Source: Leucoraja erinacea (Eukaryota). From it: a DNA stretch of 64,000 nt. This document shows, in pieces, positions 1 through 51,343 of the stretch (position 1 is the first letter of the stretch; every line of letters starts with the position of its first letter). The stretch spans positions 4,898,001-4,962,000 of the forward strand of contig NC_073403.1 in NCBI RefSeq assembly GCF_028641065.1. The letters are read 5' to 3'. The notes below the pieces were generated by a model. That model had not been told where the DNA came from. It did no database searches and was given only the letters and a program-made list of their open reading frames with translations. The position numbers and the translations under genes were made by a program.

Positions 1-283
1 TGTTACAAGGACCTCAAAAATACTAATAGAAGATGACAGCCAAAGATGATGTCTCCGACCATTTGAATGTGAACTGTGTGCATTGTTTCTTTTCACTGTA
101 TAGCACACATATGCGGTATTAAAATATGTGAGCAAGGAAGGACAGTAAACAAGTATAACCTTTCACCTTAAAGAGAACACTGTGAAAACAACTAAAGTTA
201 GTCCTGTAGGAAGGATGCTGATTTGCACCGAAGATAGACACAAAAGCTGGGTCGGGCAACATCTCTGGAGAAAAGGAATAGGT

Positions 284-311
284 GACGTTTCGGGTCGAGG
301 CCCATCTTCAG
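284..311 (-). ncRNA. Minimal hammerhead ribozyme-like core (PLE type)
   Basis: Minus strand gt-CTGAAGA-T-GGGCCTCGACCC-GAAAC-GTC-ac, with a GUC cleavage triplet and a 2-bp stem I. Confidence 0.5.
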
Positions 312-1363
312 ACTTCTTCAGCAAAGTTTGTGCTTATATCTTCAGGATCCTATTTACATTTTATCCTCCTAGTGTAGTTTCAAACAAGCAATCTGAAGGG
401 TCCTGACCTGAAATTTCATCTATCCATTTTGTTTCACAGATGCTGCTTGACCTATTGAGTTTATCCAGGAGTTTGTTCTTAGCACAAAAGGTCTTAATGG
501 ATAGAATCCATGGGCCACATAACGTAGGTAAATGTCCACACTTAATTTATTCATATTTGCTTATTTGATGAAAGAGGCCATTCAGCCCATCATGTCTATG
601 CTAGCTCTCAGTAATTCAATTTTTCCAATCAGTATCAATTAGCACTAACCCCAATTCTGAATACTTTCAAGAGCGTGCTAGATAGGGCTCTTGAAGATAG
701 CAGAGTCAAGGTATATGGGGAGAAGGCAGGGACTGGGTACTGATTGTGGATGATCAGCCATGATCATATTGAATGGTGGTGCTGGCTTGAAGGGCCGAAT
801 GGCCTACTCCTGCACCTATTGTCTATTGTCTTCTACTATCCACCTTTGTTAGAGCCAATTTACAGTAGCCAATTCACATAGCAACTGGCTAGTCTTTGAG
901 ATGTGTAGGGAAATCAAAGCATTGAAAAGAAACTCATGCAGTCACAGGGAGAATATGCAAATTCAAAACAAATAGAGCCAGGGATCACAATTCAACCCAG
1001 CCACTGAAGGTACGAGACTTTATTATTCAATCCGAAAAGACATGATAAAAGCTTGATCTTATTCTTCTGCGAGTCATACCCGATTTTCCAAAATTCATGC
1101 AGGAACGAGGGAACTAGCTCCACACTTTCTCAATCCCATCATTCGCACTAAACCAATACCAATACTAAATGCTACGCCGAACAAAACTGCGGGTCCAATT
1201 GAGGAAATAATAACAGCGTAATTTGACTCAGGGGCTTATGGTCTAAACAATTGTTTTCCTCGTCTACTAAACAATTATTTCTCTCATCTACCTAACACAA
1301 ATAACAATTGTAAGTTGTCACCTGAAAGGTTGGCTTTTAAATGCCTGGGGCATCTCTATTCTG

Positions 1364-1412
1364 ATATATATATATATATATATAGATATATAGATATATA
1401 TAGATGTATATA
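1364..1412. repeat. (TA)n/(TAGA) microsatellite
   Basis: Direct inspection. Confidence 0.9.
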
Positions 1413-2101
1413 ATTTTTTTTTAATGCTTATAATGCAAAAAAAATGTCATGCCGAGTCGTCTTCCCCGATGTAAACACATATATTTACAGTATGCTCGAT
1501 ATCGAGCTACGGATGGTATTTGGTCCTGCGCTTGTTACATCTCTAGCAACTATATACAATAGATTTAAAGTGTACTATCCAACAACAATAAAAAAAAATC
1601 CATGTACTTGCAATGCGTAAGGTTTAGCAAAAATGTATATAATCTAAAAACAAAAGCAAAAGACCCGTTATAAAAATTGTGATACAAAATGTAAACGGCT
1701 GGATGCTTGTTTGAATGAAATTTAAGACACTATGCAAAGATGGCTGCCTATAATAAACAAACCTACCGTTTACTTTCACTGGATGCTGGAAACAAAATAT
1801 TACGGAGAAAGGAAGGGAAGGGGCGAGCGTGTATTAAATCATTCGAATGTAGGTTGTCAAATAAACAGAAATGAATGGGGATACGCGGGAAGAAGTATTG
1901 GCACACACTTCATGGTTGCAGAACCGAAACAATAATAAACCCATGCGCGCCCCCAGCCCTGTGCGGTGTAGTAAATGGAAGTATTTGTTGATTCTCAGGA
2001 CACACACACACACACATGAAGCCCGAAGTTGTCAGCCCTGGCTGGCTCTGCCAACCCTCGGGCTCCTTGCTCTGGTGACACTTTGCGCTATTACTACTCA
2101 C

Positions 2102-2137
2102 CCTCTCCTCGTCCGTCAACTCTTCCGTGTCACTCAT
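2102..2137 (-). CDS. First coding exon (MSDTEELTDEER) of a minus-strand gene running off the left edge; probable TRA2-family SR-like splicing factor
   Basis: AAAATG start at 2137, 36 nt, then a consensus donor AGG|GTGAGT (2101-2096), directly downstream of a CpG promoter. Its 12-aa length, MSD start and terminal R match recalled TRA2A (MSDVEENNFEGR) and TRA2B (MSDSGEQNYGER) exon 1. The exon is well supported; the identity is inference. Confidence 0.6.
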
Positions 2138-2269
2138 TTTTAACACAGAACAAAAAAAAAACCCACACACGTACGCACGCTTCCGCAACGAAAATAAATA
2201 ACCGGATTAAATAACTTGGGGTTTTTAAAAAAAAAAAGACAAATGGGCAAATTAAAAGGAAACTTGGCC

Positions 2270-2465
2270 GCGCAGATTCCCGACAGCTGACAAAATGGCG
2301 CCTTGGCAACCGCGATCCGCTTTATACTGCTTGACAACCGCACTTGCTGGCGACCGTGACGTCACAGACGACGCTGATTGACGTGAGCCATGTCCAATGT
2401 GCGTTTGGTATCTTGGCAATGACGCTCCCCTCTGTCCCGCCCCCCCGTGTGGAAGTGGGCGGGGT
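2270..2465 (-). promoter_or_regulatory. CpG-rich housekeeping promoter/5' UTR of the minus-strand gene
   Basis: YY1 motif AAAATGGCG (~2292-2300), X-box-like CTTGGCAAC (~2302), palindromic CRE TGACGTCA (2357-2364), a second TGACGT (~2379), CCAAT (~2394) and GC box CCCGCCC (~2436), with locally high CpG density. Confidence 0.7.
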
Positions 2466-12689: not shown

Positions 12690-13238
12690 TGGTTCTTATA
12701 GAAACATATAAAATTCTTCAGGGATTGGACTGGCTAGATAGAAACATAGAAAATAGGTGCAGGAGTAGGCCATTCGGCCCTTCGAGCCAGCCATTCAATT
12801 TGGCTGATCATCCAAAATCAGTACCCCGTTCTGGCTATTTCCTCATATCCCTTGATTCCCTTGGCCCTAAGAGCTAAATCTAACTCTCTCTTGAAAACAT
12901 GAATGAAGGAAAAATGTTCCCGATGTTGGGGGAGTCCAGAACCAGAGGTCACAGTTTAAGAATAAGGGGTAGGCCATTTAGGACTGAGATGAGGAAAAAC
13001 TTTTTCACCCAGAGTTGTGAATCTGTGGAATTCTCTGCCACAGAAGGCACTGGAGGCCAATTCACTGGATGTTTCCAAGAGAGTTAGATGTAGCTCTTAG
13101 TGCTAAAAAAATCAAGGGATATGGGGAAAAAGCAGGAACGGGGGACTGATTTTAGATGATCGGCCATGATCATACTGAATGGCGGTACAGGTTCGAAGGG
13201 CTGAATGGCCTACTCCTGCACCTATTTTTTCTGTTTCT
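12690..13238 (+). mobile_element. CR1 3' fragment with a nested inverted CR1 3' end (~12738-12900)
   Basis: LIETYKILQGLD..MFPMLGESRTRGHSL interrupted by an antisense family tail. Confidence 0.8.
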
Positions 13239-13239
13239 A

Positions 13240-14375
13240 GGAAAGATGGAAGAGGGGGGAGGCAGGAGGTGATTGGGGGTGGATGGGGATGATGAGAGTG
13301 TGGGGAAGGAGAACGGTTGGGAAGAGCATGTGGGAAGGGAGTGTGGGGAATACGAGGAGGTGAGGAAGATGAGGGGGGGAGGGGGGTGTGGAGTGTGGAA
13401 AAGGGCATGTATGAAAGGAGAAGGGCTGGGACGATGGGGTGTGGAAGGAAAGGGGCCGGGGAAGAAAAGATGGGGGTTGACATGGAAAGCAGGGAGGGGG
13501 ATGGGATGTGGTGGAAAGAGGGAGTTTGGGGAGGAAGAGGACAAGGCAATGTGGCGGGTTAGGGTCGGTGGGGGGGGGGGGGGGGAGTAGATAAGACATG
13601 GGGTCAGCAGGTAGCTGTGGGTGGGGGGGCGGGGGTGGGGAGAGTGGACAAGGGGGAAGCAGGTAGCTGTGTGTGGGGAAGTGGACAAGGGGGGGGAGTA
13701 GATAAGACATGGGGTCAGTAGGTAACTGTGGGTGGGGAAGTGGACAAGAGGGCGGGGGGGGGGGGGGGAAGCAGGTAGGTGTGGGTGGGGAAGTGGACAA
13801 GAGGGCGGGGGGGGGGCAGCAGGGTGGGGGGGGCAGCAGTGGACAAGTGGGGGGGGAAGTAGACAAGGGGGGGGTCAGCAGGTATCTGTGGCGGGGGCAG
13901 TGGACAGGGGGGGGTCAGCAGGTAGCTGTGGTGGGGGAAGTGGACAGGGGGGGGGGGAGTAGATAAGACATGGGGTCAGGTAGCTGTGGTGGGGGCTGTG
14001 GGAGGGCGGGGCAAGCTGTGGGTGGGGAAGACGGGGGGGGGGGGGGGGGGGGGGGTCAGTAGGTATCTGTGGGTGGGGAAGTGGACAAGGGGGGGGGAGT
14101 TGATAAGACATGGGGTCAGTAGGTAACTGTGGGTGGGGAAGTGGACAAGAGGGCGGGCAGCAGGTGGCTGGGGGGGAAGTGGACAAGGGGGAGTAGTAGA
14201 CTGTGGGTCAGTAGGTAACTGTGGGTGGGAAGTGGACGTGGGGGGGGGGGGGGGGGAGTAGATATACATGGGTCAGCAGGTAGCTGTGGTGTGGGGAAGT
14301 GGACAAGGGGGGGGGGGGCAGCAGGTATCTGTGGGTGGGGAAGTGGACAAGGGGGGGGGGGGGGAGGCAGCAGAG
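13240..14375. repeat. G-rich low-complexity tract and minisatellite upstream of SNF8
   Basis: Repeated GGGGGGAGTAGATAAGACATGGGGTCAG(C/T)AGGTA(G/A/T)CTGTGGGTGGGGAAGTGGACAAG units separated by long G runs. Confidence 0.9.
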
Positions 14376-14540
14376 GAGGTGGGTGGTGCAGGGTTGGTTG
14401 TCCTGCGGTTCCACCTGGCGGCCGCGGCGGGAGGAGGAGGAGAAGGAGGAGGAGCCGGGGCCTTGGATCGAGGCGGCGGCCGGGGGCCGGAGCTTTCCCG
14501 TGGGCGAGGGCAGCGGCGGCGGCGGCGGCGGGGAGCGGCC

Positions 14541-14594
14541 ATGCACCGGCGGGGGGTCGGAGCCGGCGCTATCGCCCGCAAGAAGCTGGCGGAG
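14541..14594 (+). CDS. SNF8: SNF8 (ESCRT-II subunit Vps22/EAP30) coding exon 1
   Basis: GCCATG start; MHRRGVGAGAIARKKLAE matches the SNF8 N-terminus; donor GAG|GTGGGT. Confidence 0.97.
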
Positions 14595-14932
14595 GTGGGT
14601 GGCCGGGGCCGGGGGCCGGGGTCTGGGGTCTGGGGTTGGGGTAGGCCCCGGGGACAGGCCTCACTGCTACTGGTGGTGGGACCGTGCTAGAGTCAGGACA
14701 GTGACATTACTTGTTGCAGCACAGCAGCATAAATAAACCTCCAGGCAGGGGTTAAACTCCATTACAACAGGCAGACAAACATCCAGCAAGCGATCAGCCA
14801 TGATCATATAGATTGTCGGTGCAGGCTCGAGGGGCCGAATGGCCTACTCCTGCACCTGTTCTCTATGTGTCTAAATGTTTAGAGGGATCTGGGGCAACGT
14901 TGAACACAGAACAGTACAGCACAAGAACAGAC

Positions 14933-15566
14933 CCCTCACTCCCACCCTCACCCCCCCCCCCTCCCCTAACCCCCCCTCCCTCACTCCTCCCCTCACCCCC
15001 CCCCCTCACACTCACACCCCCCCCACTCTCAACCCCCATCCCACTCACCCCCCCCCACTCTCAACCTCTAACCCCCCTCCCTCACTCCCACCCTCACCCC
15101 CCACTCTCGCCCCCACCATTACTCCCCCACTCTCACTCCCAACCTACCCCCCTCACACCCCCCTCACCCCGCCACTCTCAACCTCCATCCCACTCACCTC
15201 TCACTCTCACCCCCTCCCTCCCTCCCTCTCACTCTCACCTCACCCCCCTCCCTCACTCTCACCCTCACCCCCCTCCCTCTAACCTCACTCACCCTCACCC
15301 CCCCTCCCTCACTCTCACCCCCCTCTCCCACTCACCCCCCTCTCTCACTCTCACTCTCCACTCTCCTCTCACCCCTCCCTTACCCCCACTCTCACTCTCA
15401 CCCCCCCTCCCTCACTCTCACCCTCACCCCCCCTCCCTAACTCCCACCCCTCCCTCACCCCCTCCCTCACTTACACTCTCACCCCCCCTCCCCCCACACT
15501 CTCACCCCCCTTCCCCACCTCACTGTCCCCACCTGGCCGCACACCCATTTATACCCTTCCCCCCCT
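14933..15566. repeat. C-rich low-complexity repeat in SNF8 intron 1
   Basis: (CCCTCACTCTCACCC)-like units; G nearly absent on +. Confidence 0.9.
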
Positions 15567-15924
15567 TTTAAAAATAAAAATAAACTTCAGAATAAAAAAT
15601 ATAAAGAATATATTATTATTATTATTAAATCGTTGAAAACATTAGCGACGCAGTGGTGCTGGTTTCCGATGGTCTTACAATGCTATTTGCGACAGTGATC
15701 GCAACTTCTACTGAAGTGTGGATGGCCGTTGGCTCGCTAGGAGCTCATCCGCCCTTTGACAGGTCTTGTTTTTGGTCCTGCTGGGGGTCCACAGCCCCCT
15801 GGCCTCACCTGGCAAACCAGGTGAGGGAGACGGTTTAGTCGCCGACTATCCGACCATGGAGCAGGTAGCACGGGATTACATGGTACCCTTGGCGGGGTGG
15901 AACTCCCCCCCCGACCTGACAATT

Positions 15925-16452
15925 CAGAGTCTGAGGATCCTTCAGTGCTTCTACTCTGGGGCTGTAGAAAGCATCTTGTCCGACAACATCACAATCTGGT
16001 TTGGGAACTGCTCCGCCCAGGACAGGAAGGCTCTGCAGAGAGTAGTGCGTTCGGCCGATCGCACTATGGGAACTACACTCGCCCCCCTGCAGGACCTATA
16101 CATCAGAAGGTGCAGATCCAGAGCCAGCAACATTATGGGGGACCCCTACCACCCCAGCAACGGACTGTTCCAGCTGCTACGGTCAGGCAAACGCCTCCGC
16201 TGTCATACGGTGAAAACAGTGAGGATGAGATGGAGTTTCTTCCCACAGGCCATCAGGACTGTAAACTCTTATCTCACCAGGGACTAATTTACTGTACTAA
16301 TTTACTGTTGTGTTGTGTCTTTTTTAAATTGTTTTTTTTCTAACATGTTTCTGTTCTGTTCTGTAGTTTTTACACAATCCGCAGGCATTGCCACTTTCAT
16401 TTCACTGCACATCTTGTATGTGTATGTGACAAATAAAGTTGACTTGACTTGA
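15925..16452 (+). mobile_element. Rex1/Babar LINE 3' fragment
   Basis: ESILSDNITIWFGNCSAQDRKALQRVVR...SFFPQAIR, ending AATAAAG(TTGAC)n. Confidence 0.85.
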
Positions 16453-17465
16453 ATATACACAAAACAAGAACAGTGCAAAAATGGTTCTGGCATTCTCGGA
16501 GACTATACATACATTCATTAATTTTTCCCCTCCACCTACATTCCTTCCTCTGGCTTCACAGTTCTCACTTTTTCTATCCTTATCTCCCACCTTTTGTATT
16601 TTCATCTCTTGCCTTTCTCCAATTGCCTATCAAAAACCACACTCACTTGTAGCCACCTATCATTCGCCAGGCTTTCTCCTGCCTCCTCCAGCTTTCTCCT
16701 CTTCCAGCCTTCCAGAGGTTATGAAATAAGTTTGCAAATTCAGTTTAGTTGATAGATACAGCGTGGAAACAGGCTCACCGAGTCCACTCCGACCAGCGAT
16801 CCCCACACACTGGGAAACACCCCTCCTTCTTCTTCTTGCCTATGCCGTGCACAGCCTAAAGTTGTAGGACAGCTTGTTCTATTTGATCTTATTTCATTGT
16901 GCACGCTGGGTTGATTGCATTCGTCGAAACAGGGCAGACCACGTGAAGGTTGCAATCTTCCACCCCACTGGGTAACACAATTTACAATTATACCAAGCCA
17001 ATTAGCCTGCAAACCTGTAGGGCTTTGGAGTGGGGTGGTAGGAATCCAGAGATTCCAGAGAAAACCCACGCAGGTCACAGGAGAACATATAAACTCCATA
17101 CAGACAGCACCCGTAGTCAGAATCAAACCCAGGTCTCCGCCGCTGTAAGGCAGCTACTATACCGCTGAGCCACACAAGGTTTACAGAAAATATTCAGTGA
17201 CAAAATGTTCAGGAGCAGTGGACTTGTCTCCAACTTTCTGAAGAATATTTGTACCACTAAAACATTATCTGGTCTTTACCACATGTAGGTCTGTGTTGTG
17301 TGCAGATTGCTACTACCTTTTCTGAATTTCCCCAATGACTTGATTTGAAACATTATTCTTTATATGTAAACATCATTACAACCTCAGGTCATGTAATAAG
17401 CTCTGCAAATGCGAAATGATATTTAAGTCTGACAGTAGACTGACTTGCAAACTTGATTTGTTTAG

Positions 17466-17516
17466 GCCAAATATAAGGAGAGAGGAACAGTGATGGCTGA
17501 GGATCAACTAATGCAG
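17466..17516 (+). CDS. SNF8: SNF8 exon 2
   Basis: tttag|AKYKERGTVMAEDQLMQ|gttagt, 51 nt. Confidence 0.96.
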
Positions 17517-17655
17517 GTTAGTGCTCAATGTCTTGAGTTGAAATCCCTTCATCTGATCATTTTTCCTGCCTGAGTTTTGCCTTTTAAATTCCTGCATCTT
17601 TTTCGGCGGAAGAAGTAGTGGACAGTATTACAAAAGTTTGTCCCACATTTTGCAG

Positions 17656-17794
17656 ATGTCAAAACAGTTGGAAATGTTCAAGACTCACCTGGAGGAATTT
17701 GCCAGCAAACACAAGCAGGAGATTCGGAAAAACTCAGAGTTTCGAGTTCAGTTTCAAGACATGTGTGCAACAATTGGAGTGGACCCCCTGGCAT
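17656..17794 (+). CDS. SNF8: SNF8 exon 3
   Basis: tgcag|MSKQLEMFKTHLEEFASKHKQEIRKNSEFRVQFQDMCATIGVDPLA|gtaagt, 139 nt. Confidence 0.97.
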
Positions 17795-18127
17795 GTAAGT
17801 CCAGAAACACAATGAAGTGCAGATGCAGGAATCTTAAGCAAAACACAAAGTGCTGGAGGAACTCAGTGGCCCAGGCAGCATCTGTGGATGGAACGGGCAG
17901 ATTGATGTTTGGGTTGGGACCCTTTTTCAGTCCTGATCCAAAAAGTCAGTACATTTCCTCCACAGATATTCATAAGTTAAAGGAGAAGAATTAGGCCATT
18001 TGGCCTATCAAGTCTACTCTGACATTCAAGCATGACTGCTCTATCTTTCCCTCTCAACCCCATTCACGTGCCTGCTGACCATAATCCCTGACACCCGTAG
18101 TAACCAAGAATCTGTCAATCTGTGCCT

Positions 18128-18360
18128 TGCGGCGGCACCTGATAGCAACCCAAGGTCACGACAAACCATCGGCTCTAGAGGGCAGCGTCTTGGTGGGGGA
18201 GGCACGAGTCACGGGGTTGTTATCTGAGTTATTATTTAAGGCCGGGCAACGCCCGTGTCAGCTGGGGAGTAGGGAGCTGTATGCAGAAGAATAAACACGT
18301 CTAGAGCACACACTTGTGTCGGACTAGTTTTTGGCTGGACTCCTGCCAGTCCCCGCCACA
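18128..18360 (+). mobile_element. Solo LTR (233 bp)
   Basis: TG...CA ends with inverted termini TGCGGCGG/CCGCCACA, 4-bp TSD-like GCCT/ACCT, TATTTAA (~18233) and AATAAA (18290); interrupts an antisense CR1 3' UTR. Confidence 0.75.
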
Positions 18361-18379
18361 ACCTTAAAAATACCCAATG

Positions 18380-18945
18380 ACAATGGCCGGACTGCAGAGC
18401 AAGAATTCACCAGATTCTGATTCCTAGAGAATGTCCAGGACTGTCTTCTGTTGAAAGCACTTTGGATAGACTTGTAATTGCCTACTCTCTAGAGTTTCCA
18501 GGATCCATATGTTGGAGGTGATCTTATATAGATGGACCTTTCCACAAAATTTCTTAAGGGCCTATCCTGACAGGCTAGATGCAGGAAGATTGTTCTGCCT
18601 AATCCTGTGATTGGGGAAGTCCAGGACAAGGGGTGTACAGCTTAGCAGGAAAAGGGGGAAATCCTTTAAAACCGAGATGAGGAGAACTTTTTTCACACAG
18701 AGAGTGGTGAATCTCTGGAACTCTCTGCCACAGAGGGTAGTTGAGGCCAGTTCATTGGCTGTATTTAAGAGGGAGTTAGATGTGGCCCTTGTGGCCGGGG
18801 GGATCAGGGGGTATGGAGAGAAGGCAGGTACGGGATACTGAGTTGGATGATCAGCCATGATCATATTGAATGGCGGTGCAGGCTCGAAGGGCCGAATGGC
18901 CTACTCCTGCACCTAATTTCTATGTTTCTATGTCTATGTTTCTAT
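18380..18945 (+). mobile_element. Young CR1 3' insertion in SNF8 intron 3 (5' part garbled)
   Basis: Close match to other CR1 copies from 18660 to 18945 with (CTATGTTT)n tail. Confidence 0.8.
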
Positions 18946-19483
18946 GACTTGGCCTCCACTGCCGTTTGTAGCAATGAATTCCACAGATTCACCACCCTCT
19001 GACTAGAGAAATTTCTCCTCATCTCCTTTCTGTTGCCTAACCAGCACTTTGTACTTTGCATGTAATCCTGCCTATTTCTCTCCAGTCAACTTTCCACTAT
19101 CCATATCCGTTGGGGGTGTTGGTTAGTATAGATGGACCTTTCCACGGCATTTATCCCATAGCATGCCTATCCTGAGGGCATTCGATGGGGCAGACTTTAT
19201 TCTGCCTAATCCTTGTGATCTTTGCCCTGGCAGTGTTTGATGGTACAGTGTACAGGGAGCAGGAAAAGGGTCCCAACCCAAAACATTGTCAAGCTCTTCC
19301 CTCCATCGATGTTGCCTGAGCTAGAGAGAGGTATCTAACCCAAAATGTGTCTCTGTATGTACCTTGTACCTTCACTGTATCTAACTGTACCTGTGCTTGA
19401 AGTGTTTGATGGGGGCAGTGTCAGAGCAGAAAGTATTAGGTAGACAAAAATGCTGGAGAAACTCAGCAGGTGAGGCAGCATCT

Positions 19484-19736
19484 ATGGAGCGAAGGAAATA
19501 GGCAACGTTTCGGGTCGAAACCCTTCCGGGTTTCGGCCCGAAATGTTACCTATTTCCTATAGTGGAGATTGTTCAACTCTTTGCATGGAGCGAAGGAAAT
19601 AGGCAACGTTTCGGGTCGAAACCCTTCTGGGTTTCGGCCCGAAACGTTACCTATTTCCTATAGTGGAGATTGTTCAACTCTTTGCATGGAGCGAAGGAAA
19701 TGGTCAACGTTTCGGGTCGAAACCCTATCTTCAGAC
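19484..19736. repeat. 101-bp tandem duplication (~2.5 copies) of a fold-back element plus flank
   Basis: ATGGAGCGAAGGAAAT... restarts at 19484, 19585 and 19686. Confidence 0.85.
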
Positions 19737-19870
19737 TAATGTGAGGGTGGGGGCAAAGTCACCGTAATAAAACAAACAGAATATTTGCCACCAATAATTG
19801 TATTACAGATTTTTGAAAGTTTCTATTCCACTACCACTGACTTGAGGTTTATTTTTCACTCCCCCTGTAG

Positions 19871-19975
19871 CCGGCAAAGGATTCTGGTCTGAGATGCTGG
19901 GTGTTGGAGATTTTTACTATGAGCTGGGAGTACAGATTATTGAAGTCTGCCTGGCTCTGAAACACAGAAATGGAG
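19871..19975 (+). CDS. SNF8: SNF8 exon 4
   Basis: tgtag|(S)[34 protein letters not shown]|gtaat, 105 nt. Confidence 0.97.
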
Positions 19976-20167
19976 GTAATACACTGACATTGTTCTGCAT
20001 GTGTCTCTGTGCTGTGTTCATGGGTGGAAATATAAAAGGCACTATAATTTAGTCATCAAGTTGTACAGCATGGAAACATGCCCTTTGGCCCAACTCTTCC
20101 ATGCCGACTAAGATGTCCCATCTATGCTAATCACATTTGCCTGCGTTTGGCCCATAACCCTCTAAAC

Positions 20168-38700: not shown

Positions 38701-39217
38701 ATATCAGCAACCGCGGGAGAGGTGCCGACTGGAACCAAGGATTATGAAGTTCTCGTCCGTTTAATGCTATCTCTGGTCTCAGACTTGGGGAGGAAGCACA
38801 GTGGTTTCAAGACTAAGTTGGATGGAAGAAGTTCCGAGGTTGGACTAGGTCCGAAGAAAGGTCCCAACACAAAACATCACCTATCCCTTTCTCCAGAGAT
38901 GCTGTCTGACCCACTGAGTTATTCCAGCACCGTGCGTCTATCTTTAGGATGGAAAACAGATTGGCAGAATTTAAATTAAAAATTCATCCACCTAACAATA
39001 CTTCTTTGGCATATCACTACACTCTAGAGGCCAAATGCCTCAGACGTTTGCTACTTGCCACAACTAGATTGCACTAGTGTCGCTGGGCTCTCCCACTCCT
39101 TCACTTCACCGCAATACCGTCATCTTCCATTTCCATCACTCATCTATTTATCTAACTTCCCATAAATAAAATCGTCAAGTCCAAATTATAAATGACTCTA
39201 ACGTTGTTGAAGCTTAC

Positions 39218-39329
39218 CTGTTCAAAACCCGGCTCATTGTGATATGGGTTCTCAGTCATCAGGGACTGAATGGATATGAGTACTGAAGAGATGCTCTGGG
39301 CCGGGCTCCATGCTGGACCTGTCCAGGTG
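39218..39329 (-). CDS. UBE2Z: UBE2Z exon 4
   Basis: ttttag|(G)[37 protein letters not shown]|gtaagc, 112 nt. Confidence 0.97.
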
Positions 39330-39749
39330 CTAAAATGAAAGATGTCTCCTTAAGACAGAGCAGAAACCTCCAAAATCAGAATATTGGTGATTCGGCACCA
39401 ATCTCATGCGATATCGGCAAATCTTTTATTTAGTGCAAATCGTCAGCCTGCAACTGTTTTCTTTAAAATACAAAATGCTGCAATCATTCAGCGGGTCGGG
39501 GAGCATCGATGGGAAGAGACACTGCCTGGTCCGCTGAGCACTTGTGGCTTTTATTCCAGCTTTCCACAACTCCAAACGCAGGCAGGACGGACTAGTGTAG
39601 ATGGGGCATGCTGGTCGGTGTGGGCAAGTTGGGTCTGTTTCCACACTGTGTGACTCTGTGAACTGGTGGTTCGGTGATCCCTCTGAATTTTATAGTCGGC
39701 AGGGCAGTACTCTGCATATCGCCAACTTGGACAATTTTTACATTTTATC

Positions 39750-39952
39750 AAGCCAATTAATCAATCCAATTAACCTACAAACCGGTATGTCTTTGGAGTG
39801 TGGGAGGAAACTGAAGACCTCGGAGAAAACCCACGCAGGTCACGGGGAGAACGTACAAACTCTATACAGACAGCATCTGTAGTCGGGATCAAACCCGGAT
39901 CTCTGGCGCTGCATTTTGCTATAAGGCAGCAAATCTACCGCTGTGCCACTGT
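39750..39952 (-). mobile_element. V-SINE
   Basis: Reverse complement of the same SINE head and V-domain; another copy at ~16975-17175 (-). Confidence 0.75.
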
Positions 39953-40486
39953 TCTTGTGTTGTACTCTCTATGATTCTGTCTTTGCAAGGACAGCAAAGC
40001 AAAACGTAACTGCATATTCGCACATCCACTGTGCCAAACATCATAGCATTCTGCATCTCTTTATGAGGTGTGTCAATTGCTGATTTCTGCTGGTAAAATG
40101 GCTCAGCGGGTCAGGCAGCATCTCTGGAAAAAAAGGATGAGTGATGTTTTGAGTCGGAACCCATCTTCAGCCAGTCTGGAGACCAGTTCCAACTCGAAAC
40201 GTCACTCGTTCTTTTTCTCCAGAGATGCTGTCTGACCCGCTGAGTTACTCCAGCACTTTGTGTCTACCCTCAGTACAAACCAGCATCTGCAGTTCCTTCA
40301 TACGTTCATAAGTGATAGGAGCAGAATTAGGCCACTCTGCCCATCAAAGACCCTTCCTCAACATTAGGTAATTCTCTCAACTGGTTGCAGAGTTCAGCAT
40401 TCAGCCCTGCCTCAGCCTAGTGGGAGGCATTTCAACTTTACTCAGAAATATATGCACTGCATCTCCACCTGACTGTCAGTACTTAC

Positions 40487-40674
40487 CCAAGTATGCTGAG
40501 GCACACTTTGCCGTTTCTGTAAAAATTTGGGTTAAAGCGCACGCTGTTATTTCCAGTTGTCACGAGTTTGACCCTCGGAGGGTGGATGGGATAGTCAGGA
40601 GGGCAGCGAAAGAGAAAAAGAAAAAAGCCCCCTTCATACGGTGTGTCGAAAGGTCCTGTGATTAGTGCATGGAT
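40487..40674 (-). CDS. UBE2Z: UBE2Z exon 3 (UBC core with catalytic Cys)
   Basis: gcag|[62 protein letters not shown](G)|gtaagt, 188 nt; NPN and VCLS motifs intact. Confidence 0.98.
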
Positions 40675-45478: not shown

Positions 45479-46459
45479 GGCCCGAAAGGCCTGTCTCCAT
45501 GCTGTATGGCTATCTAATAATTCTACAGCATAAGAATGGGTAGATCCACATTATACCCATTGTTTCACAACTCTCCATCTCCCTGCACAGAATATTACCA
45601 AAGGGGTTAGTTCGCAATATTTTAATTCCACCAAATCCTCTGTTGCTTTAAAATATTCACACAGGACAAATCATAAAGCTCCAAATACCTTCATCAGAAC
45701 ATCTGCAAATGTAACTGCTGGCACTTTGTTAGCTAGCAACAGATATGAATGCTCATGACCGTAGGGAGTTTAGCAGGGAGTGGGCCTCCATCACAGAGAG
45801 GAGTAGGAAGTTGAAATAAACACCAACGTTTGTGTAAAAGCAGTATGCAAATAAAGTTGGCTTTTGAAAACAAAAGAAAAAGCGGGCTTAGGGAATGCTG
45901 GTGGAGGAAAAACCGAGTTGAAGGTACAATGAAAAGAGACACCGTAAATATACATTTAGTACGCGCACTGATGTGCATTAAAGTGAAACTGATAGACACT
46001 GGAGTAACTCAGTGAGACAGGCAGTATCTTTGGAGAGAAGGAATGGGTGATGTTTCGGCTCGAGACACTTCTTGAGACTTGAGACGTCACATTCCTTCTC
46101 TCCAGAGATACTACCTGACCCGCTGAGTTACTCCATCAATTAGTGTCTATCTTCGGTTTAATCAGGCATCTGCAGTTCCTTCCTGTACAAGTGAAACTGA
46201 TAGTTGTGTACGAGGGAGGCTGGGATTGAAAGGATCGCGGATGAAGGAAGTGATTGAGCTCAGGAGACTGCACCATGAACGTTCTCCTAGACCATTCTTG
46301 CTTTTTGCTCCTTACTGCACCCTGCTATCCTAAACATCCCCCCCCTCCCTCCATCTCACAGCGACCCCCAGAAGCCCCCGTCCTCTACACCCCCTGGATA
46401 TTGGGTTACTTCACTAACGCCCTTCCCCCACCCTTCTCCTGTGTCCCCCCTCTTCTCTC

Positions 46460-47005
46460 CATTGTGACCCCTCTCCCCTGTGATCCCTCACCTCGTCCCC
46501 TCTCTCCCTATGACCCCTCACCCTGTGACCCCTCTCCCTGTGACCGCTCACCTCGTCACCCCTCTCCCTGTGACCCCTCACCCCGTCCCCTCTCCATATG
46601 ACCCCTCACCCCGTCCCCCGCCCTGTGACCCCTCACCTCGTCACCCCTCGCCCTGTGACCCCCCACTCCTCTCCCTCCCCCTCTCCGTCCCCTCGCCGTG
46701 ACCCCCTCACCTCGTCCTGTGACCCCTCTGTCGTCCCCCTCACCCTGTGACCCCCTCCTCCTCACCCTGTGACCCCTCACCCCGTCCTGTACCCCCCCCC
46801 TCCTCACCCTGTGACCCCTCACCTCGTCCCCTCGCCCTATGACCCCTCACTCACTCTCCCTGTGACCCCTCACCTCGTCCACCTCTCTCCCTCCTCACCC
46901 CTCACCTCTCCCCTCCCTGTGACCCCCTCACTCCTCACCCTGTGACCCCTCACCCCCGCCCTGTGACCCCTCACTCCTCACCCTGTGACCCCTCACCCCG
47001 CCTCT
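46460..47005. repeat. CCCTGTGACCCCTCA minisatellite at the start of UBE2Z intron 1
   Basis: Many degenerate copies of CCCTGTGACCCCTC(A), G-rich on the transcribed sense (-) strand. Confidence 0.9.
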
Positions 47006-47036
47006 TGTCCCCTCTGGGCCGGCCTAACGAACCCAC

Positions 47037-47209
47037 CTCTTGATCCGCAGCAGGCAGGGCTGCGAGGGCTTCTCGTTGTCCCAGTCGGTGCTGAGGGTGG
47101 GGTCCCACGAGGTGGCGTGGAGCTGACTGAGGAGGCCGCTCGCCACCGTGCCGGTGCTGCCTGGTAACAGCATCGGGCTCACGCTCTCCTCCACCGGGGC
47201 CTCCGCCAT
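47037..47209 (-). CDS. UBE2Z: UBE2Z coding exon 1
   Basis: AAGATGG Kozak; MAEAPVEES...SWDPTLSTDWDNEKPSQPCLLRIK(R)|gtgggt. The seven exons total 921 nt = 306 aa + stop. Confidence 0.95.
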
Positions 47210-47274
47210 CTTGCCCGCTCCGCCCGCACTGCGCGCACGCGCCGACAGCCGGCCGGCCCCGGCGTCAGCAGCGC

Positions 47275-48000
47275 CGCCACCGCCCGCTCCCAGTACTGCA
47301 GCCCGCCCGCCCGCCGCAAACACCGCCCCCCCGCCGCCCGCTCCCAGTACTGCCAGCCCGCCCGCCCGCCACAAACACCGCCACCCGCCGCCCGCTCCCA
47401 GTACTGCAGCCCGCCCGCCCGCCGCAAACACCGCCCCCCGCCGCCCGCTCCCAGTACTGCCGCCCCTCCCAGTACTGCAGCCCGCCCGCCCGCCGCAAAC
47501 ACCGCCACCCGCCGCCCGCTCCCAGTACTGCAGCCGCCCGCCCGCCCACCGCCACCCGCCCGCCCGCTCCCAGTACTGCAGCCCGCCCGCCCGCCGCAAA
47601 AAACCCGCCCACCGCCGCCCGCTCCCAGTACTGCCGCCCGCCCGCCCGCCCGCCGCAAACACCGCCACCCGCCGCCCGCTCCCAGTACTGCCGCCCGCCC
47701 GCCCGCCACAAACACCGCCACCCGCCGCCCGCTCCCAGTACTGCAGCCCGCCCGCCCGCCACAAACACAAACCCACCGCCCCTCCCGCTGCGCCCCCGCC
47801 CTCCCCAGTACCGCCGCCGCCCCGCTCCCAGTACCGCCCGCCAGTACCAAAGATCTTTGGCCAGTACTGCGCCCCCGCCCGCCCACCGCAAACACCGCCA
47901 CCTGCCGTCCGCTCCCAGTACTGTCGCCCGCCCGCCCGCCGCAAAACACACCGCCACCACCGCCCGCTCCCAGTACTGCCGCCCGCACGCCCGCCAGTAT
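47275..48000. repeat. GC-rich minisatellite in the UBE2Z promoter/5' region
   Basis: About 17 copies of core (CT)CCCAGTACTGC joined by (CCCG)n and CAAACACCGCC; period mostly ~50-57 bp. Confidence 0.9.

Positions 48001-51151: not shown

Positions 51152-51343
<192 letters not shown>

Follow-up and report, generated by a model that had tools for sequence, protein, structure and literature searches.

A probable third vertebrate TRA2 gene, TRA2C, beside IGF2BP1 in the little skate

Introduction

A short exon near the left edge of the 64-kb stretch of Leucoraja erinacea DNA analysed here (the window, contig C27:4898001-4962000) opens an intact, transcribed third TRA2 gene, which is named TRA2C in this paper. 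TRA2C is very probably a functional third vertebrate TRA2 gene, the HoxB-side ohnologue from the genome duplications, which bony vertebrates have lost. The vertebrate TRA2 literature, as far as its available text goes, describes two paralogues (PMC3240583, PMC4175592, PMC12077678, PMC12469348). A description of a third was found neither in the literature searched, where subscription journals are mostly absent, nor in 12 of the 24 supplement files of PMC8455134 and four of the five of PMC8302630. One supplement available in part, SI Table 10 of PMC10115646, does list a 'Tra2a-2' on little skate chromosome 27 and a 'Tra2a-1' on chromosome 2. TRA2C is also already in databases: the RefSeq entries called 'transformer-2 protein homolog alpha-like' from sharks, rays and Callorhinchus are this gene (RRM exon 90-98% identical in elasmobranchs, among the matches listed). 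These names are automatic, some entries being 'beta-like', and the status of a separate ohnologue was stated nowhere that we found.

First exon and gene structure

The coding part of exon 1 lies on the minus strand at 2137-2102 and consists of ATG and a further 33 nt (MSDTEELTDEER, 12 codons). It is followed by a phase-0 GTGAGT donor (2101-2096). The 5' UTR is placed at 2138..2300, minus strand, with a presumed outer limit set by the TATA box and by GCCATTTT at 2299, which we take to be a YY1/initiator-like element. Beyond it, at 2300..2465 on the same strand, is a CpG-rich promoter with TATAAA (2326), the CRE-type site TGACGTCA (2364) and a GC box, GGGCGG (2442). TGACGTCA is present upstream of TRA2A on contig C2 too. 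The ratio of observed to expected CpG is 1.23 across 2096-2465 (370 bases, 50% G+C) against 0.45 for the window. Everything that the earlier note had read from the letters, namely a CpG promoter, a 12-codon exon and a phase-0 GTGAGT donor on the strand opposite SNF8, is there: the plus-strand gene SNF8 follows at 12-18 kb to the right.

Stop-free stretches of the form ATG-33nt-GTRAG occur twice across both strands of the window. The pattern is therefore not unique, and exon 1 needs support from outside. This comes from the orthologues. In RefSeq, 26 of 44 TRA2C orthologues start with MSDTEDLTDEER/K, and orthologue N-termini run on into exon 2, located 11.3 kb downstream of exon 1. The shared start and its continuation into exon 2 lift exon 1 above chance.

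Exons 2-8 were located in the 150 kb to the left of the window. Together with exon 1 they give eight coding exons in one open frame of 266 aa on the minus strand of C27, and every intron is GT-AG. Intron 1 starts at window position 2101, takes up 1..2101 of the window and measures 11,255 nt in all. It is followed by exon 2 (C27:4888846-4888695, 152 nt), exon 3 (C27:4886624-4886453, 172 nt), exon 4 (C27:4885459-4885271, 189 nt), exon 5 (C27:4884686-4884571, 116 nt), exon 6 (C27:4883599-4883531, 69 nt) and exon 7 (C27:4881569-4881508, 62 nt), all on the minus strand. The last exon, also minus, begins at C27:4881420 with five coding bases, and its stop ends at 4881416. That stop (C27:4881420-4881416) comes two codons early, so the protein ends TPR and not TPRRY. 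The terminal RY is present in 38 of 44 orthologues; the skate RNA contig described below agrees with the early stop. The exon plan, in its phases and its exons of 36, 189 and 116 nt, matches that of TRA2A and TRA2B in the same genome, whose first coding exons are likewise 36 nt long with a GTGAGT donor. The exons to the left thus encode the RS-RRM-RS TRA2 protein that the earlier note had foreseen, and an IGF2BP1-type gene comes after them.

Transcription is seen in a 1254-nt contig from run X1, which was taken as RNA by guess. It covers exons 2, 3, 4, 5 and 8 and the 3' end with no extra letters, and a gap of 133 nt fits exons 6 and 7, pieces of both being missing from the listing. Ahead of exon 2 the contig has about 114 nt, and its match reaches one base into the acceptor. 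That base would agree with the final G of exon 1 but not with the final A of the poison exon of intron 1. From it we infer the exon 1-2 junction, and with it a 5' UTR that would reach to about 2215. Of the RNA junctions to which the earlier note had looked, then, those across exons 2-5 and 8 stand on a spliced contig and the exon 1-2 joint on inference. Exons 2-3-4 are also joined in a contig (X3) from a related organism. On the exons, raw poly(A) reads reach a depth of about 15-24 in X23 and 2-3 in X24, and two repeat-free intron bins have no such reads.

Genomic setting

The skate genome has three loci of this kind. A query with exon 5 gives exactly three matches (C27, C2 and C7). With exon 4 there are 17, of which those on C27, C2 and C7 are 79-100% identical and the other 14 at most 46%. 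No fourth TRA2 locus appears among the genome candidates scored with these two queries. The C2 gene gives a TRA2A model of 286 aa and the C7 gene a TRA2B model of 272 aa. The first exon of IGF2BP also has exactly three matches, each on the strand of its TRA2 gene, and no fourth in the genome. The IGF2BP genes start 21.8 (C27), 41.6 (C2) and 37.7 kb (C7) downstream of the TRA2 stop codons. On C27 the start codon is at C27:4859659, minus strand, co-directional with TRA2C. The KH2 exon has IGF2BP1 residues in the C27 copy and IGF2BP3 residues in the C2 copy. A second match, at C1342:75211-75330, equals the C2 IGF2BP3 KH2 exon in score and identity and is possibly an unmerged haplotype. The claim of a TRA2 gene next to IGF2BP1 is therefore correct, with a co-directional IGF2BP1-type gene 22 kb downstream, and separate TRA2A (C2) and TRA2B (C7) genes exist, each with an IGF2BP gene of its own downstream. 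In human, we take it, TRA2A and TRA2B have 12-codon first exons and lie just upstream of, and co-directional with, IGF2BP3 and IGF2BP2, and IGF2BP1 lies beyond SNF8/GIP on the strand opposite SNF8, without a TRA2 neighbour.

Each of the three contigs also has a homeobox cluster: C27:5.21-5.39 Mb, C2:83.88-83.98 Mb and C7:21.70-21.79 Mb. Of 365 homeobox candidates 150 were scored, and these are the only Hox clusters among them. Their ends carry Hox group-1 and posterior (group-13/10/12-type) genes, and TRA2C is about 0.3 Mb from the cluster on C27. From layout and neighbours, and in part from general knowledge, we take C27 to be HoxB, C2 HoxA and C7 HoxD. The context looked for in a product of the 1R/2R duplications, a TRA2-IGF2BP tandem together with a Hox cluster, is thus found on C27, C2 and C7.

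Three other genes in the window serve as markers of synteny. SNF8 is the divergent neighbour, with its first exons at 14541..19977 on the plus strand (EAP30 matches at 17644-17802 and 19879-19977) and a start codon presumed from motif to be at 14541. Exons at 39200..40674 on the minus strand we assign by motifs to UBE2Z (UQ_con match, E 2.4e-16, for 40486-40674). An exon at 51152..51265, also minus, is presumably of ATP5MC1 type (ATP synthase c subunit); this assignment is by motifs only, and the 38-aa piece has no Pfam match at E 0.001. The order ATP5MC1, UBE2Z, SNF8, IGF2BP1 with SNF8 reversed is, we assume, that of the human HOXB flank. Presumably the human SNF8-IGF2BP1 interval also holds GIP. 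None of 23 matches to the glucagon/secretin family (Hormone_2, E up to 1) is on C27, and GIP may have been lost from the skate interval, moved or become too diverged. Fifteen of those 23 are within 350 kb on one strand at C8:18607561-18961690 (minus), a cluster that is a tandem expansion of secretin/VIP-family peptide exons. Two stretches searched against Rfam (L002, in the SNF8-IGF2BP1 interval, and L037) gave no matches. Elsewhere in the window, a CpG-rich peak at 46440-48000, between UBE2Z and ATP5MC1, is due to two adjoining G+C-rich minisatellites, one with a repeat unit of about 15-21 nt and the other of about 53 nt, and G-rich, then C-rich low-complexity repeats surround the first exon of SNF8 (13000-15700).

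Phylogenetic position and distribution

Protein searches returned 239, 476 and 1881 matches, of which the best 120 were kept in each case. A multi-RRM eel protein, top by summed score in the RRM exon listing, was dropped. The closest relatives of the RRM exon are ten shark and ray proteins at 90-98% identity, and all others are at 86% or less, among the matches listed. RefSeq names the ten 'alpha-like' or 'beta-like'.

TRA2C forms a group of its own. From 270 proteins, the 208 that measure 200-340 aa and have a complete RRM core were put in one tree, where TRA2C falls in a clade of 44 rows, with support of 99, that holds cartilaginous fishes only, chimaera included. The position of TRA2C beside TRA2A in this tree was disregarded, being forced by the choice of a TRA2B row as root. 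Of 411 sequences, 45 carry a motif combining a TRA2A-type loop with a TRA2B-type helix, and all 45 belong to the TRA2C group. In a careful tree, built from 23 selected rows of vertebrates, support is 100/98 for TRA2C, 99/97 for TRA2A and 100/99 for TRA2B. Its TRA2A and TRA2B clades each contain both cartilaginous and bony fishes, so TRA2C split off earlier. In a quick tree with six outgroups the three clades stay, without a fixed order of A, B and TRA2C, and one outgroup row is misplaced among the vertebrates. The trees hold no cyclostome sequence and the outgroup tree no named amphioxus row. On the branches from the node joining the three genes there are 0.46 changes per column for TRA2C, 0.15 for TRA2A and 0.27 for TRA2B; TRA2C evolves about three times faster than TRA2A.

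The phylogeny with skate TRA2A and TRA2B that the earlier note had proposed therefore groups TRA2C with neither. TRA2C is not with the TRA2A of bony vertebrates nor beside IGF2BP3, a place filled by the C2 gene. Nor is it with their TRA2B or beside IGF2BP2, where the C7 gene fills the place. Between sharks, rays and chimaera the TRA2B RRM exon (C7:34214457-34214645) keeps 98-100% identity, among the matches listed, and among these it scores bony-fish TRA2A above most bony TRA2B. The C7 TRA2B model shows no glycine-rich exon.

As for loss, the earlier note had spoken of an ohnologue missing from mammals. The gap seems broader than that and would extend to all bony vertebrates retrieved by the protein searches. 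Bichir, sturgeon, gar, coelacanth, lungfish, teleost, amphibian and amniote rows all fall in TRA2A or TRA2B, and no bony-vertebrate TRA2C is among the proteins retrieved (best 120 of 239, 476 and 1881 matches). A diverged bony-fish copy is unlikely. To gauge sensitivity, a TRA2C profile was built from elasmobranchs only; it gives the held-out chimaera protein 395 bits, above the best A or B row at 366 (256 rows). Diverged TRA2B-type proteins from two marsupials (P0316 and P0335) are without the TRA2C motif and are possibly retrocopies.

The TRA2C protein

The TRA2 family is defined by a single RRM in the middle, with the RS1 domain on one side and RS2, the shorter of the two, on the other (PMC3240583). 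TRA2C has an RS1 of 120 aa with 35 RS/SR steps, a single RRM (RRM_1 match, E 2.4e-15) and an RS2 of 45 aa with seven. The family hallmarks are all present: G at position 2 and F at 4 of RNP2, RGFAFVYF as RNP1, and extensions on the N- and C-terminal sides. Solved structures of the TRA2B RRM exist that cover the domain, and the residues of human Tra2-beta that contact GAAGAA, with 193 as a main-chain contact, are given in PMC3045587. R111, F123, F161, F163, Y165, R187, R188, R190, D192 and I195 are kept in 45 of 45 TRA2C sequences. Position 193 is Tyr, as in TRA2A, and Phe in human TRA2B, so that ten of the 11 scored positions equal human TRA2B. With these residues and the poison exon described below, TRA2C most likely acts as an AGAA-binding splicing activator under poison-exon feedback.

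One residue sets most TRA2C proteins apart. Ten residues ahead of the first Arg that contacts RNA, 158 of 160 scored A and B rows have a Met (65 others unscored). In TRA2B this internal Met starts a short form that lacks RS1. In TRA2C it is kept in three of 44 rows (chimaera and sevengill shark), and 41 have Ile or Val. Skate TRA2C has no other Met ahead of the RRM. The short RS1-less form of TRA2 and its repressor action are described in the available parts of PMC3240583 and PMC12469348. TRA2C also has a more acidic exon 1 than TRA2A and TRA2B, and no glycine run after the RRM.

The two known systems can be set beside TRA2C. TRA2A, next to IGF2BP3 on the HoxA chromosome, shares eight coding exons of equal phases, a 36-nt first exon, the RS1-RRM-RS2 layout, the DQRTGRSRG loop, RVDYS, 89 of 100 RRM core residues, a clearly alignable poison exon that lies about 300 nt ahead of exon 2 and an upstream CRE-type site. 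Unlike TRA2A, TRA2C forms its own clade, has an acidic exon 1, lacks the glycine run, has a shorter RS2 and (41 of 44) Ile or Val for the internal Met, sits on a branch three times longer and is found, among the matches listed, in cartilaginous fishes only. TRA2B (SFRS10), next to IGF2BP2, shares the exon plan, the ENV.D.KEAKE helix, a poison exon in intron 1 and every RNA-contact residue of the human structure but 193. TRA2C differs from it in a core with 85 of 100 residues identical, in Tyr for Phe at 193 and in a poison exon that is far less similar.

The poison exon and feedback

The poison exon of TRA2C (C27:4889389-4889122, minus strand, 268 nt) lies in intron 1, 275 nt before exon 2, with AG/GT ends. 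Those of all three genes begin GTTAAT, the C2 (TRA2A) exon being 321 nt long and the C7 (TRA2B) exon 265 nt. AGAA occurs nine times in 280 nt at the TRA2C exon, where the frequency in the intron would give 1.7, and inclusion leads to a stop at codon 70. Among the reads aligned, which are mostly repeat-derived and show no exon joints, depth on it is low, no higher than in the adjoining intron bin, and would fit intron retention as well as inclusion. Nine of 44 TRA2C database isoforms, from five sharks, start MKNEEKK or MKKRK joined to exon 2. Both frames are found inside the skate poison exon, which suggests that those gene models include it.

In mammals, Tra2 proteins bind and activate poison exons and so repress their own and each other's expression, and the two genes can compensate for one another, according to the available parts of these papers (PMC3240583, PMC4175592, PMC12077678). 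If TRA2C behaves as this literature has it, the protein would bind AGAA exonic enhancers via its RRM and activate splicing via its RS domains. High Tra2 levels would turn on the AGAA-rich poison exon, giving the stop at codon 70 and nonsense-mediated decay. TRA2C would then join, as its third node, the loop in which TRA2 genes regulate themselves and each other.

Is it a specialised node of the cartilaginous-fish loop and not a spare copy? We regard this as a tentative idea, with the odds against it. Such a node would make no short RS1-less repressor form, the internal Met being gone in most elasmobranchs. It would have an acidic first exon and a level differing several-fold from sample to sample, and an alternative basic N-terminus may come from part of the poison exon in sharks. 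If it is true, the three homologous poison exons would date the feedback before the first vertebrate genome duplication, and would make a three-way system in which to ask why bony vertebrates could lose one copy under dosage control.

Origin of TRA2C

The history that we propose begins with an ancestral TRA2-IGF2BP tandem on a Hox-bearing chromosome, which the two vertebrate genome duplications would have multiplied. The HoxA side would have given TRA2A-IGF2BP3, the HoxD side TRA2B-IGF2BP2 and the HoxB side TRA2C-IGF2BP1. Cartilaginous fishes would have kept all three TRA2 genes, and bony vertebrates would have kept IGF2BP1 and dropped TRA2C. The earlier note's view of a TRA2 ohnologue beside IGF2BP1 is upheld by the separate clade and by three tandems on three Hox contigs. 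The closest sister of TRA2C would be TRA2A, from the second duplication, with TRA2C on the beta segment; non-coding similarity and the pairing of the Hox clusters point this way.

The protein is of little help here. Of 100 RRM core residues, TRA2A and TRA2B share 90, TRA2C and TRA2A 89 and TRA2C and TRA2B 85; since A and B are at least as close as TRA2C and A, the protein does not show TRA2C and TRA2A to be sisters. The poison exon says more. Globally aligned, that of TRA2C has 212 identities with that of TRA2A (z 17.6 against shuffles), whereas z is 6.2 with TRA2B. Its downstream flank gives z 6.4 and 1.5, respectively. For the IGF2BP exons beside TRA2C, identity is 83% and 93% with the C2 copy and 63% and 85% with that on C7. 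Non-coding sequence and neighbouring IGF2BP exons thus favour TRA2A as the sister. In the portions available, PMC7269912 assigns HoxA to alpha and HoxB to beta segments and PMC10972751 groups Hox A/B versus C/D.

The alternative that survives best, though it is improbable, is that TRA2C is a true ohnologue with a different history: the second-round sister of TRA2B (HoxB-HoxD), or a gene also kept in some bony vertebrates. TRA2C and TRA2B have ENV.D.KEAKE in common where TRA2A has ER..D.KEAME, and the outgroup tree does not order the three. SI Table 3 of PMC10115646, available in part, pairs skate chromosome 27, as the beta partner, with 7 and not with 2, a pairing that the available text of PMC7269912 terms arbitrary. 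The absence from bony vertebrates is drawn from the best 120 of 239, 476 and 1881 matches. However, the poison exon and its flank, the IGF2BP neighbours and the chimaera protein's place over every A and B row in the profile search all go the other way. In any case, this variant alters the history of TRA2C and not its function.

Less probable still is a later duplicate of TRA2A (or TRA2B), specific to cartilaginous fishes, that moved next to IGF2BP1. One could point to the seemingly restricted distribution (among the matches listed), to the name 'alpha-like' and to the poison exon and flanks, which are nearest to those of TRA2A. Nevertheless, trees that unite TRA2C with cartilaginous-fish genes are worse, by 26.2 log units for TRA2B (AU p 0.008) and by 15.7 for TRA2A, where rejection is borderline (AU p 0.041). 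A late duplicate would also need to have reached the third IGF2BP gene on its upstream side and in its direction, copying the arrangement at the other two loci. Finally, the codons for identical residues differ about half the time in each gene pair (45 of 90, 50 of 91 and 51 of 86). With divergence so similar in all pairs, the TRA2C-TRA2A split can hardly be younger than that of TRA2A and TRA2B.

What if TRA2C is decaying, transcribed but freed from selection in this lineage? Its branch is the longest of the three, its RS2 the shortest and its terminal RY lost to the early stop, but an open frame, canonical splice sites, spliced RNA, an RRM exon 90-98% identical across sharks and rays (among the matches listed), a full set of RNA-contact residues and a conserved non-coding poison exon make this very hard to believe. 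The earlier note's weaker alternative, a CAPZA-like exon 1, was rejected, all eight F-actin_cap_A matches being on C16, C19 and C24 and none on C27.

Significance

As a HoxB-side ohnologue, TRA2C fits a known pattern of retention in cartilaginous fishes. PMC10115646, in the parts available, reports 19 ohnologues that chondrichthyans have retained and bony fishes have lost, and names wnt6b and cspg5, but not TRA2, among the retained genes; TRA2 may be on that list. Like those, TRA2C is faster evolving and would be a beta-segment paralogue lost in bony fishes. Beta segments, according to the same source, show more gene loss and faster evolution, a tendency that fits both the long branch of TRA2C and its loss.

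The jawed-vertebrate ancestor, by this account, had three TRA2 genes, and both the TRA2-IGF2BP tandem and the poison exon predate the duplications. Sharks, rays and chimaeras have held TRA2C for more than 400 million years, and its loss in bony vertebrates would mean that a dosage-controlled splicing factor can be lost. The gene is a marker for the pairing of HoxA with HoxB and a reason to correct the 'alpha-like' and 'beta-like' labels in shark annotations. It is also a third sequence for finding which elements of the poison exon matter. The value of TRA2C is not in a new mechanism; it is in a preserved poison exon and a three-way feedback that can now be tested.
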